A program made the position numbers and the translations under genes. A model generated the notes under the pieces. The model was given only the letters and a program-made list of their open reading frames with translations. It had not been told where the DNA came from and searched no databases. Shown here in pieces: positions 7,990 through 35,535 of a stretch of 64,000 bases of DNA (the first letter of the stretch is position 1; the number at the start of each line of letters is the position of its first letter). Source of the DNA: Octopus vulgaris. Taxonomy: Eukaryota. Where the stretch lies: positions 75,826,001 to 75,890,000 of the forward strand of contig OX597823.1 in the NCBI GenBank assembly GCA_951406725.2. The letters run 5' to 3'.

Positions 7990-9520
7990 CGAAGAGCGCG
8001 ATTCGATTGTAAGATATCTTATTCAACGATATTTCAACAGTACGTCCGTCTTTGTCAAGTTCAAAATAAGAAGTGATAAAACTTCAAAATTACAGACATT
8101 TAAATGTAAAGTATGAACGAGAGCAATCAGCGTCCACACTTTGATAGAATGACATCATCTATTTTTAAGTTACAATGTTAAAACAGGCGAAAATAAAAAG
8201 ACAAAAAAGAACAGAAAAAAGAAGACGACAAAAAGAAATAGAGAGAAAGAAGAATATTTAATCAAACAGTCTGGTATAAATTTGATGAGAATTCTCCTGT
8301 CATCTTATTCATTCCTCCAGGGCGTGATGCTAATAACCCACAAACATATTCCTCCTCATACATTCTGAGAAGTGAAAATGAAGCACATTCAGAATATTTT
8401 CTGAGAATATGCACTTTCAAGTCTTCTCCAAAATTGCAGCCGCTCGAAAAGAAAGATTCAGCAGAATCTGTCAAACTACTGTTATTGTGCCTGGCATCGA
8501 ATCTGTGCCCATTAAACATTTTGTTTAATTGTTCTGTTGTACAACCAACATAAATTAAGTTGGGTTTCATGCATTCTGCAGCACACGCCAAATGGGAATC
8601 TTTACATGTTCCAACTTCTCTATAAATCATAACATTTCTGTTATGATTTCTGATGGAATTAACTTCACTCATGTTGTTGCACAATGAACAAGGCATACCT
8701 ACCTTGCGGCTCTTCTTTAAGGTACAGCGTGTAGATATTCCAATGTTCGTTTTCTTGGAGTCAGATATAAAGGTCAATAATTATCTTATATTCTTATTCC
8801 GTCTAAAGGCTACAATAAGCGGCTGAGGAAATATACGTTTGAAACGAGGATATTTTTCGCCACGTGCTGGTAACTTTCATGCAATAGTTTTGAAATGATT
8901 CGCTGTATCCGCGTTTGACATGACATACAGAAGCATTTGCATGTTTCCAGTAATCCCCTATGTCATTACAAATCTTTTTTATCCTCGAAAATAGGGGTTT
9001 TGGATTTGACCGAATAAGATGAAGTGGATGATTGGAGCGGCGCTGGAGAGGAATGTGGGATGGCGTGGGCTTGCAAAATAACTTTGTCGCTATTCTGCCT
9101 CCAGAAAACTTGACTTTTGTGTCCAAACATTCAACACTAGTTTTTGAAAAACTAGACGTAAATTTTATGTTGGAACTAAAGCCATAGTTTCTAGCGTAAC
9201 AGTCACAGAAATGCAAGAAGTGGATTAAACTATTCTGGGATCTTTCCCAGACAAGAAATACGTCAATGAACTGTAACCAGAGTTTTGGTTCATGACCATG
9301 AAGGGATTTGAAAGTCTTCGGTAGCAGTGTCTAGAATTTCGTCATGAAAACATTAGCGAAATTAACAGCCATAGAGGTACCCATAGCGCAATCCTTCGTC
9401 TTCTCTTGGTAAAATCTTTGTCTAAACTTCATTGTGTTGCTTTCTAACACAAACCTCAGTAATCTACAGAGAAAATTTGATGGAATACTTTTGTTTGACC
9501 GCTTTTCGAAGGCAACCCCA
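7990..9520 (-). mobile_element. Penelope-like retroelement (Neptune-like), RT plus GIY-YIG pseudogene
   Basis: RT core DCAMGTSMAVNFANVFM...LWLQFIDVFLVW (9230-9480). Thumb SSNIKFT...ECLDTKV...TKLFCKPT...SNHPLH (ORF 8803-9216). Endonuclease CSLC...IYVGCTTEQLNKMFNGHRFD...PGGMN (ORF 8262-8777). Variant HHR-like motif near 8020-8060. Confidence 0.9.
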
Positions 9521-19586: not shown

Positions 19587-21700
19587 TGGGGAAGGCTTGT
19601 TTATGGGATTACCTTAGGTGTCCTCCCCGTAAAGGATTTAGCTTTATGGCGTATCGTCAGATCCGAAAACCCTGTTGGCCCTTGATCTCTTAAAAATATG
19701 GAGGGGAAATGCCTCACTACTCGAAGATAACAATTGAGAATTACCCCCCTACCCTTTGCTATTGGCTATCTACTTGCGGATGTGCTACAATCTTGTGAGC
19801 CCCCAAAAGCTAGAAGGAACCTCCTGAATTGTAAAGATGGCCCGAAATTCGTTGTTCTGAAGTTAAGGATGTTCCTTGGTTTGAGCGAGTCTTTAAGGAT
19901 TCTCGCACGTTCAGCTATGCATAAATTGCACCAATTTGTCCCGTTGATGTAGGGGCCTGGGTTCTCGAGGATTTTCCATGAGATCCAGTATGGAACCCCA
20001 TCATCTATTACTTGCCAGACGTGGCTGCCAGTAATTTTACGCATCCACTTTCCGGCACGCTGAAGGAAGACCTGTAGTTTGAGAGATGTTGCTTGAAAGA
20101 GTTCCCGGAACATCCAACGTATCTCCGTGGGCGTGTATTCTCCGTGCTGTATCTGCTGGTATTACTGTTGTTGTTATTGCTGCCGCCCCCAGCATTGTTG
20201 TTGTTGCAGCTGGGTCTGCTGGTGTTGGCATCGATGGAGGTGGTGGTAGCGTCGGTAATGGTATCGCCTCTACGGTTATGGCAAAGGTACTGTTGTTGCT
20301 ATAATTGTGGTACTCGTCATTGATGGGAAAGCTGCAATTACTGCCAGAGGTGTTTCTACTGCTGCTGTTATAACTAGCGGTAGCACCGTACATGTTACTA
20401 TTGCTATAAGGGTTGTTAAGGGCTGTCGCTGTGGACGTTAAGGAAGCTGTTCTTAATGCTGCTCTTGATGTTGATCCTGCTGTTGTTGTTAGTGTTGTTA
20501 CCGTCTGGGGTACTGCCAATATTGTCGCTTGTGCTCTTATACTAATATTGTTAACTGTGGTGATTGTGGAATTGTTGCTAGTTTTCTTCTCATGTCTACG
20601 GCTGCCACTGCTTCTGCCGGTGGGATTGCCAGATTTAGCTAGTACTCCGTCTTGATAGACGTGTTTTGTGTTAAGAGAGATGGGGCGGGGTAAGCCAAAT
20701 ATTATTTCTTCGGCACTTCCATCTATGGTTGTTGGGTTTCGGCATGTATCCATAAATCTGCTGGCAGTTCGGGCCTCGTTATAGTACGGGGCCGCTGCGT
20801 CAAAAATCTTTTTTTTTTTTTAGGAAAGATTAGAGATCTTCTTACTAACACCCTTTATCTGAATTTTGAGCACGATGCGTGGGTGGAAGGAAGCTTTGTT
20901 GGTGTGCGTTAGCCTCTAGTTTGGTTTGTGGTAAGACCTGTATGTGCCGGAGCCCAAGTCGAGCGTGACGCCTAAGCCTAAGGTTGTGATATTGGTCTGT
21001 ATGGTAATTTTCAATCCCATGCAGGCAATTGTGTTGATTAGATCTTTTCTAAGCTTGTCTACTGTATACTAGCTTGCAACCCTAGTGATGGCCAAGGTGT
21101 CATCTCTGTAGAGGCCAAAGAGGACAGAGGGGACTTTTCCAAAGGATATCGAGGATGTACAATGAGACCACATACGTCAGCGCTATCGTAGGCTACCATT
21201 ACTACGTCAAATGAGCCCGTGGGGTCGGATTTCTTGACCCATGACAAACGTTTCTTGAACAACAGTCTTTCTGGCAAGCATAATATCTTCTACATCTCTT
21301 TCGCCGATACTAGTGATTAGGCGTGTGAGGTGGAAAGCATTCTACCACAACCTAACCGCACCATCCCTGGAAGGCAACATTTATGGAATTAGATCGAGAA
21401 AACAAGCACCCAAAATCAAGAACCTCGAACCCTTCGAGTCGGACTGCTTCATAGAAACTATAATCAAGTTTTACCGAAATGCAAACTATTCGATATATTT
21501 TTCAGCTTATATGTCTTGGAGTGCATGAGCCAATATTTCTTCCTTTTCAGATGCTTGGGTGGTATATGATGGTTGTTCTCTACCCCTTTTTAATAAGTTG
21601 CTCGACAACCTGGAGGTGTGTTAGGTTTGCTCGGTGCGTTAATTATATTATTGTTAATAAGAACTTCTTACGCTAGTTTAACTATAGGCCTGCCGTATGC
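19580..21700 (-). mobile_element. Penelope-like retroelement: RT, low-complexity linker and GIY-YIG, with an internally inverted N-terminal segment
   Basis: RT GSFDVVMVAYDSADVCGLI and LYRDDTLA (21050-21280). Endonuclease RRYVGCSGNSFKQH and WKILE..GPYINGTNWCNLCIAERARIL...ILNFR (19766-20130). Segment 21313-21480 on + reads MIRRVRWKAFY...YGIRSRKQAPKI..LEPFESD. Confidence 0.85.
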
Positions 21701-33890: not shown

Positions 33891-34074
33891 ACATTTAAAC
33901 AAATATATCGGGGCCACTAGACAGTAAACCATTAAAATCTTGTTCATGCCTGCATGATATCTAATTATTATAACGTTGATTACTTCACTTATGTTTCCCT
34001 TCATGTATCTTGTTTAAACGTATTCTGCGCAAAAAACAAATACGGAACAATTTTGTTCTCAGTTCTAAACGTGG

Positions 34075-34139
34075 CAAAGTAAATTATTAACTCGACCTGG
34101 GTGGCTATACATACCAACCTTTGTGGTTTTTAATATATC

Positions 34140-34177
<38 letters not shown>

Positions 34178-34187
34178 TAAGAGATCA

Positions 34188-34235
<48 letters not shown>

Positions 34236-34298
34236 AAGTAAATTATTAACTCGACCTGGGTGGCTATACATACCAACCTTTGTGGTTTTTAATATATC

Positions 34299-34352
<54 letters not shown>

Positions 34353-34361
34353 TAAGAGATC

Positions 34362-34391
<30 letters not shown>
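34075..34391 (+). repeat. Tandem duplication of a ~158-bp unit containing (TA)n
   Basis: caaagtaaattattaactcgacctgggtggc...aagagatcatgtg occurs at 34075 and 34234. Confidence 0.92.
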
Positions 34392-34393
<2 letters not shown>

Positions 34394-34515
34394 CAACAAT
34401 AAAGGAACGGCCATAATAGGCCATTCACCCACTAGAAATAACAGCCAAAGCTTCAACCGCAAATAAAAGTTAATTCAGTAAACCAGGAGAAAATTTAAAA
34501 AACATTTACCCTGTA

Positions 34516-34622
34516 ATTTCTTATACGATATACCGTTTCATCTGCTGATTAATGGTAAACTAACCTGATTAAATTAAATCAAGCCAATCTTCCACAGGCC
34601 CTCAGATTCTTCAGTAAGAAAT
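34516..34622 (-). ncRNA. Type I hammerhead ribozyme, mirror copy
   Basis: Reverse complement of 34962-35068. Confidence 0.85.
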
Positions 34623-34961
34623 AGCCCAAGACGGAACAGATATTTTCACGAGGCATTTCCGACGTTGCCAAGTTTATATCTGACCTAAAATTTTCAAATC
34701 GTCGCACTCGCGCCAAATTTATCGGCAGCAAATAAATATAAGCCGTCGATTCCATTACGGAATTAACCAGAAAATTCACAATTAATCAATATAGGGTGGC
34801 AAAAAAAATTTTGTAGAATTCTTTTGCCACCAGCGGCCTAGTAGGAAAAAATTAAAATAGTCATAGACCGTCGCGAGTGCGACGATTTGAAAATTTTAGG
34901 TCAGATATAAACTTGGCAACGTCGGAAATGCCTCGTGAAAATATCTGTTCCGTCTTGGGCT

Positions 34962-35068
34962 ATTTCTTACTGAAGAATCTGAGGGCCTGTGGAAGATTGG
35001 CTTGATTTAATTTAATCAGGTTAGTTTACCATTAATCAGCAGATGAAACGGTATATCGTATAAGAAAT
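34962..35068 (+). ncRNA. Intact type I hammerhead ribozyme with long stem II
   Basis: atttctta CTGAAGA atctg...cagat GAAAC ggtatatc GTA taagaaat. Perfect 8-bp stem I; predicted cleavage after 35060. Confidence 0.88.
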
Positions 35069-35364
35069 TACAGGGTAAATGTTTTTTAAATTTTCTCCTG
35101 GTTTACTGAATTAACTTTTATTTGCGGTTGAAGCTTTGGCTGTTATTTCTAGTGGGTGAATGGCCTATTATGGCCGTTCCTTTATTGTTGATGTTGAACT
35201 TAAAAATGGTCTATGACTATTTTAATTTTTTCCTACTCGGCCGCTGGTGGCAAAAGAATTCTACAAAATTTTTTTTTGCCACCCTATATTGATTAATTAT
35301 ATATATATATATATATATAAGAGGTCAGTGGATCAGTAGGATCAGTAGGATATATATATATAAG

Positions 35365-35535
35365 AGGTCAGTAGGATCGCGGTTTCGATTCCCAGACCGG
35401 GCGTTGTGAGTGTTTATTGAGCGAAAACACCTAAAGCTCCACGAGGCTCCGGCAGGGATGGTGGGGATCCATGCTGTACTCTTTCACCACAACTTTCTCT
35501 TACTCTTTGTTTCTGTTGTACCTGTATTTCAAAGT
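35365..35535 (+). mobile_element. SINE family C fragment
   Basis: ggatcgcggtttcgattcccagaccgggcgttgtgagtgtttattgagcgaaaacacc matches the reverse complement of 1020-1160. Confidence 0.85.

Follow-up and report, generated by a model that had tools for sequence, protein, structure and literature searches.

Positions 34392 to 35300 of a 64,000-nt stretch of the Octopus vulgaris genome (contig OX597823.1, positions 75,826,001 to 75,890,000; hereafter the window) hold two copies of one sequence placed head to head in a TA repeat, and the question they raise is how a single insertion came to contain two copies that begin and end at different points of the same unit. A previous reading, made from the sequence alone, had described them as circularly permuted copies of a unit of about 494 nt and as the footprint of a retrozyme-like circular RNA. 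Comparison of the copies confirmed the head-to-head arrangement: the segment A' is identical at 321/321 positions between 34872-35192 (+) and 34712-34392 (-), and B' at 89/91 between 35208-35298 (+) and 34869-34780 (-), with a spacer (y) of 15 nt in one copy and a spacer (x') of 67 nt in the other. These lengths add up to 493-494 nt, in agreement with the proposed unit and with the natural tandem units of 492-494 nt present elsewhere in the genome. The 5' ends of the arms meet, as described, through 2 nt (GT, 34870-34871), and both outer 3' ends enter (TA)n, where the last bases of the B-arm overlap the repeat. With the unit numbered from the base that follows the predicted ribozyme cut (position 1), the features of the locus are the following.

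34366..34391: (TA)n target, left side, read from the sequence
34392..34869, minus strand: A-arm, 478 nt, running from unit position 132 (site A) back through the cut and ending at 148 of the preceding unit
34516..34622, minus strand: type I hammerhead of the A-arm, identical to that of the B-arm, predicted cut at 34524/34523
34870..34871: 2-nt insert (GT) at the meeting point of the arms' 5' ends, from sequence comparison of the arms
34872..35300, plus strand: B-arm, with its 5' end at unit position 305, running across the cut to its 3' end at site B (237-239)
34962..35068, plus strand: type I hammerhead of the B-arm, with core 34970-34976, a long stem II, GAAA at 35045-35048 and predicted cut at 35060/35061
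35082..35094, plus strand: U-rich/AAA/U-rich stretch, unit positions 22-34, repeated at the inner junction of other copies of the family
35193..35300, plus strand: 'tail', the stretch from start site A to B, present at one outer end only; family range 104-107 nt
35301..35319: (TA)n target, right side, read from the sequence

Each arm thus passes the cut once and stops at 148 or 305, which places the window locus in the crossing class defined below, and its inner junction (34870-34871) carries no extra repeats of positions 22-34. No open reading frame of at least 100 aa lies within the element, as had been noted, and the single frame touching it is a TA-repeat frame (34069-34416). The GC content of the 493-nt unit is 35%. 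Immediately left of the element are two 159-bp tandem copies with TA tracts (34075-34392). Directly to its right (35320-35490) lies an interspersed repeat that is truncated at its 5' end, looks like a SINE by eye, begins with a short duplication of its start and also occurs beside other loci of the family; no tRNA gene was called between 33000 and 37000 of the window.

On the plus strand the predicted hammerhead is made up of stem I (34962-34969), CUGAAGA (34970-34976), stem II, GAAA (35045-35048) and a stem III of 3 bp closed by a 6-nt near-palindromic loop. The region folds better than 200/200 shuffled sequences (z -3.8); its minimum-energy fold does not include stem III, and an Rfam scan of the window gave no family at the gathering score. 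The motif was compared in an alignment of 18 natural copies taken from the family, its subfamilies and a sister family. The catalytic core is kept throughout, 99.2% of paired cells can pair (32-44% in slid controls), and 8 of 15 stem pairs show compensatory change on both sides, five of the eight splitting only the two families, so that few independent events are involved. According to this comparison each unit carries a predicted canonical type I hammerhead, one intact in each copy at the window locus as the sequence-only reading had it. The RNA would cleave itself in vivo, an indirect sign being the first-pass pile-up of cDNA ends at unit positions 1-35 (see below).

The genome survey (2.8 Gb, 227 contigs) returned 812 exact matches to the 27-nt ribozyme core, and none for the control. 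The best-scoring copies lie on many contigs with 96-100% identity, which together with the number of exact cores upholds the description of the element as very recent and recently active. The natural tandem period is 492-494 nt in arms of up to 10 units, and the B'-x'-A' adjacency, on which the idea of a repeating source depended, is present in many arrays. Exact patterns of the outer ends gave 423 A-ends and 1071 B-end matches genome-wide, the second count taking in subfamilies and some double counts (9 in the first 100 rows). The excess of B-ends was accounted for by subfamilies or short copies in 20/20 cases checked, all of them B-ends lacking an A partner on contig C1; these had been candidates for the ends of an autonomous element and were rejected as such, none having a frame of a Penelope-like element (PLE). 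The locus belongs to a very young family of over 400 insertions in (TA)n, with the genome-wide total put at roughly 1000.

A total of 68 loci were mapped: the window locus, the 35 best DNA hits and 32 loci from the first 100 core matches, with L058 left out as a duplicate of L051. Two divergent arms, one with its 3' end at 132 (A) and the other with its 3' end at 234-243 (B), were found in 53 of them. The remaining parses were one A+A, no B+B and 14 one-armed or unparsed loci; by eye, the sole A+A case (L092) is a B end with a deletion, and several of the 14 have a second arm of 15-25 nt. When A-ends were taken as the starting point, a B-type partner arm was present for 73 of 86 (contigs C1-C3). 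The A end is at 132 and the B end at 236-239, leaving between them about 105 nt (104-107 in this family), and this stretch is the Penelope 'tail', here some 105 nt long instead of 30-40. Subfamilies of 85-97% identity show the same two fixed ends. The apparent permutation results from these two fixed 3' ends combined with random inner points of 5' truncation. Thus, the arms do begin and end differently, as the sequence-only reading held, but they do not have free starts; likewise, the genome search with the monomer that it suggested yields the expected tandem arrays, with outer ends fixed at A and B where permuted starts had been anticipated.

The same two ends are found in a sister retrozyme family, whose 485-nt unit is 65% identical to this one and has a covarying hammerhead; many of its copies (L146, L119-L139, L151-L166) are short run-off hairpins. 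One locus (L266, G000:C4:46280500-46288500) departs from the simple A+B structure, having three A-type ends and a segment that is rearranged and mirrored, and in the one-armed loci L077, L080, L097 and L098 the 5' end is joined to unique sequence and not to a second arm.

Where the arms stop with respect to the ribozyme cut was analyzed in all 86 exact A-ends listed for contigs C1-C3 (of the 423 in the genome), a set chosen because it avoids selecting copies that bear the ribozyme. On first arrival at unit positions 1-35, 28/76 A-arms and 22/52 B-arms stop there, while on later passes over the same positions only 5/46 and 3/37 do (Fisher p 0.0016 and 0.0003, respectively; background 4.6% per 35 nt), and one of the three later-pass B-arm stops (L268) goes on by eye. 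The later passes cover the same letters and thus serve as a control for an AT-rich joining bias. Enrichment at the cut was modest in the first 68 loci (17 against 7.8 expected), because those had been picked for holding the hammerhead core. The fates of the two arms are coupled: among the loci in which both reach this point, the arms both stop in 20, both cross in 26 and disagree in 3 (p 1.6e-10). Most simply, a single RNA would be the template of both arms, either terminating at the ribozyme cut or continuing covalently across it, and the data suggest that a large class of insertions derives from cut linear RNA. In this run-off class A-arms end closer to the cut, at a median position of 8 as against 22 for B-arms (p 0.001), and 10/20 of its junctions carry 1-8 extra A4-8/T3-4 repeats matching positions 22-34, compared with 1/66 other loci, which looks like telomerase-style slippage. 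Inner junctions bearing such repeats were recorded at L230, L235, L244, L245, L247, L249, L250, L262, L271, L274 and L276.

Sequence variants also connect the two arms of each insertion. Of the 56 two-armed loci 28 are informative, and in 27 of these the two arms have the same lineage markers, against 2.3% when arms are shuffled; in an independent set of 53 loci the arms differ at 27/9087 columns (0.30%), as opposed to 3.6% between loci. Of the 133 multi-unit cells for variants found in at least two loci, 93 have the variant fixed throughout and 40 are mixed, mostly by single units; 14 variants private to one locus occur in all of its units. The use of a single RNA for both arms is a rule and not a law, given that the arms are of different haplotype in L073 and L216 and of different elements in a chimera described below (L149). 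In addition, one variant occurs in several but not all units at six sites of the first set and four of the second, a mosaic pattern that one uniform circle does not predict. In L061, L069, L048, L042, L047, L260, L263 and L266 the same variant is present in non-adjacent units, well above a rough chance estimate. An excess of G>A among unit-specific changes was considered as a mark of reverse transcription and discarded (31 G>A vs 15 C>T, p 0.29).

That this is a retrozyme integrated by priming from both ends of a break we regard as close to certain, and the family data support the corresponding claim that a Penelope-like reverse transcriptase (RT) inserted a non-autonomous ribozyme retroelement by priming at the two ends of a broken TA microsatellite. 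The form of the template in the crossing class is less settled, and a circle is in our opinion the likely one. The sequence-only reading had concluded that the source must be a circle or a tandem multimer; it was right in that more than one unit is needed, but the window locus taken alone requires only a linear dimer. Uncleaved linear multimers transcribed from arrays, copied by twin priming in the same way, would therefore account for this locus, and other data point in their direction: the arms of L035 end at 13 and 16 after two crossings, mosaic variants exist, and in vitro a Penelope RT was found to act mainly on unprocessed RNA (Frangieh et al., PMC11167929). Nevertheless, multimers cleaved partly and at random should give equal stops at every pass and not the observed change from about 40% at the first to about 10% later, and by eye none of the 26 loci in which both arms cross has both arms ending together at 1-35. 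Such templates would moreover have to come from many long homogeneous source arrays, since there are many haplotypes, each uniform over up to 10 units, and no two loci have more than one unit-specific variant in common. As a general explanation of the crossing class we consider linear multimers unlikely. Some of them probably do serve as templates, because L035 ends as it does and because later-pass stops at 1-35, when pooled (8/83), are about twice the background. Possible sources of L035, the two-haplotype loci and the ten or so mosaic sites are gene conversion, multimers that are heterogeneous, and one base being misread repeatedly.

It might also be argued that the template is always the cut linear monomer and that the RT builds multimers by jumping from its 5' end to its 3' end, in line with the evident use of cut linear templates, the slippage at the 5' end and the existence of chimeric junctions. 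This is very unlikely: all crossed junctions (157/157) are free of indels within 8 nt of the cut, and the coupling of crossing between arms speaks for a property of the RNA and not for chance jumps.

A third possibility, namely that the first arm folded back and was copied to give the second, has a precedent in the self-priming on an antisense template to which head-to-head Penelope structures have been ascribed (Arkhipova et al., 2013; PMC3846280), and is in line with the near-palindromic form of some inner junctions, 8/53 pairs ending within 20 nt of the same phase (4.4 expected). However, arms reach up to 4.6 kb and their lengths are uncorrelated, the two arms being the longer one about equally often (25 vs 24), with L069 pairing 10 units with 15 nt and L045 showing the reverse, and the place where both arms stop is the sense RNA's 5' end as set by the ribozyme cut. 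Arm lengths that vary independently and run-off at the cut in the sense strand speak against self-priming, which is largely refuted for this family and to which we give a very small probability. An assembly artefact or a DNA-level satellite rearrangement, conceivable given that inverted repeats and TA tracts are hard to assemble and that the inner junction of the window is known from the assembly alone, is more improbable still, as the same fixed ends with differing inner junctions recur at dozens of loci, in subfamilies and in the 65% identical sister family, and the unit is recovered, together with its head-to-tail joint, in contigs from four public runs.

Rolling on a circle is favored over these alternatives because each insertion passes through a monomer bottleneck, the junctions are clean and there is no second pile-up of stops at the cut. 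Structure, copy number, fixed A and B ends, coupling between arms and covariation of the hammerhead are direct genomic data; in vivo cleavage, circularity and the identity of the helper are inferred from them. Our preferred interpretation, which we hold to be probable, is that of a young hammerhead retroelement for which a Penelope-like RT-endonuclease primed both TA ends on a single, probably circular, 493-nt RNA. Tandem arrays would be transcribed and their hammerheads would release monomers, part of which would be ligated to circles. A protein bound to one such RNA would cut both strands of (TA)n and start one cDNA at site A, 132 nt past the cut, and a second some 105 nt beyond it, at site B. 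If the template is a cut linear monomer, synthesis of both would run off near the 5' end, leaving an inverted insertion of up to about 370 nt devoid of ribozyme; if it is a circle, both would roll on across the ligation junction and end at random points, so that uniform units form head-to-head arrays. Microhomology of 0-5 nt or a short insert would finally join the ends of the two cDNAs. A more specific version, for and against which we see even chances, is a rolling-circle target-primed reverse transcription in which an RT dimer on one ribozyme-made circle would extend both ends of the break from two fixed sites, cut linear RNA would give rise to run-off copies with telomerase-like repeats from a 13-nt template, and scattered variants would come from repeated misreading of one damaged or modified base on the circle. 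The contigs of the four public runs, three of them presumed but not recorded to be RNA and one unlabelled, close the 492-nt unit back on itself, and in run X1 a single 523-nt contig (492+31) spans the unit; in contigs, circle and tandem, as well as RNA and DNA, are indistinguishable, so they are not evidence of expression or of circular RNA.

The element has no frame for RT or GIY-YIG and is not an autonomous PLE, while a separate candidate helper in the same genome has both domains. This is a young Penelope-like family in which 150 listed matches are 99-100% identical and about 60 of the 150 have the full 775-aa frame. Its tandem unit of 4271 nt comprises the 775-aa RT/GIY-YIG frame, an overlapping upstream frame of 454 codons and a minimal hammerhead (copies at L187+L188, G000:C1:27838500-27858300, and at L189-L206). 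The predicted protein contains RVT_1 (290-442), a C-X4-C-XX-C motif at 650 and GIY-YIG (687-773), and by this linker motif it would be of the Neptune type, an assignment made from motif order, with Nematis as a conceivable alternative. Its copies are inserted in (TA)n with ends about 143 and 170-189 nt past its own cut, and A+B pairing was found in 10/10 two-armed copies. A chimera (L149:2742-5274, with L150 as a duplicate) joins an A-arm of the sister retrozyme family to a 5'-truncated B-arm of the helper through a 3-nt overlap, and the helper part ends at the helper's own B site, so that A+B pairing holds even across two templates. We infer that this 4271-nt element is the best candidate helper for the 493-nt family. 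No chimera of the 493-nt family itself with the helper was found in the first 68 loci or in 60 screened later, and the 493-nt monomer has no significant nucleotide similarity to the pLTR of the helper, the one active PLE examined. A motif that retrozyme and helper might have in common ahead of their start sites (upstream) was discarded as weak and not to be told apart from AT-rich background. Old, broken Penelope-like RT/GIY-YIG fragments, read from motifs and with no match in Pfam, are present in the window itself (8262-9330 and 19766-20161, both on the minus strand); they were rejected as helper, relatives of the 8806-9330 frame being at most 80% identical and mostly broken.

With regard to known systems, we assign the element by its sequence to the non-LTR retrozymes: it has no LTR structure, no open reading frame of at least 100 aa, and a GC content below the 45% limit for retrozymes. 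Like animal non-LTR retrozymes, it consists of tandem units that are non-coding and low in GC (35%), each with a single type I hammerhead. Units of 170-400 nt are given for these elements by Cervera and de la Pena (2020; PMC7229834) and of 51-972 nt by Li, Clavereau and Pollet (2026; 10.64898/2026.07.22.740005), so that the 493-nt unit differs from the former range and falls within the latter. Animal retrozymes have been proposed to yield circular RNA copied by Penelope RT into tandem cDNA (PMC7229834). Two-armed insertions, A and B ends, a run-off class and coupling between arms, all found here, are not described in the accessible text of either paper, where the term 'inverted' appears 0 times (PMC7229834) and once (10.64898/2026.07.22.740005). 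Li et al. report pLTR homology in 21/57 Xenopus families, whereas none was observed here with respect to the candidate helper.

Partial tandems and an inverted 5'-truncated copy have been described for EN+ PLEs of the Neptune type (Craig et al., 2021, PMC8557442; Arkhipova et al., 2013, PMC3846280), in which the motif order is RT, a CX2-5CxxC linker, then GIY-YIG at the C terminus, and the 'tail' of Penelope elements is found at one end only and normally measures 30-40 bp (PMC8557442). The octopus family shares with Neptune elements the tail at one end, the inverted 5'-truncated copy, the AT-rich or (TA)n target and the hammerhead upstream of the 3' ends. It differs from them in having no open reading frame, a tail of 104-107 nt, arms that reach 10 units, and a canonical hammerhead with a 3-bp stem III in place of a minimal one. 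The closest biochemical parallel concerns PAc, a Poseidon element of Anolis, predicted to act as a dimer, which in vitro cuts and extends both strands and uses two internal RT start sites bounding the tail (PMC11167929). Two such sites are also seen here; with PAc, however, the strands were not seen to differ in start site, ribozyme cleavage was dispensable and no reads ended at the cut, whereas in the octopus family there is one start site per strand and many insertions stop at the cut.

Circular RNA has been proposed as a transposition intermediate of retrozymes and PLEs since 2014 (PMC4209133), and circular templates have been invoked for copying of more than one unit (PMC4209133, PMC7229834); in the accessible text of the papers compared, the intermediate is proposed but not demonstrated. 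In the literature covered, mostly open papers, there is no report of this family, of two-armed retrozyme insertions, of the run-off class or of coupling between arms. The family is thus genuine and was active recently, a retrozyme of a known kind that integrates in the Penelope manner and whose tail is unusually long; its main value lies in the evidence that it offers on mechanism: countable genomic traces of the use of cut RNA in vivo, of the origin of both halves of an insertion from one RNA, and of one start site per strand. The same genome supplies both the 493-nt template and an intact, currently amplifying candidate RT, which makes the model directly testable.
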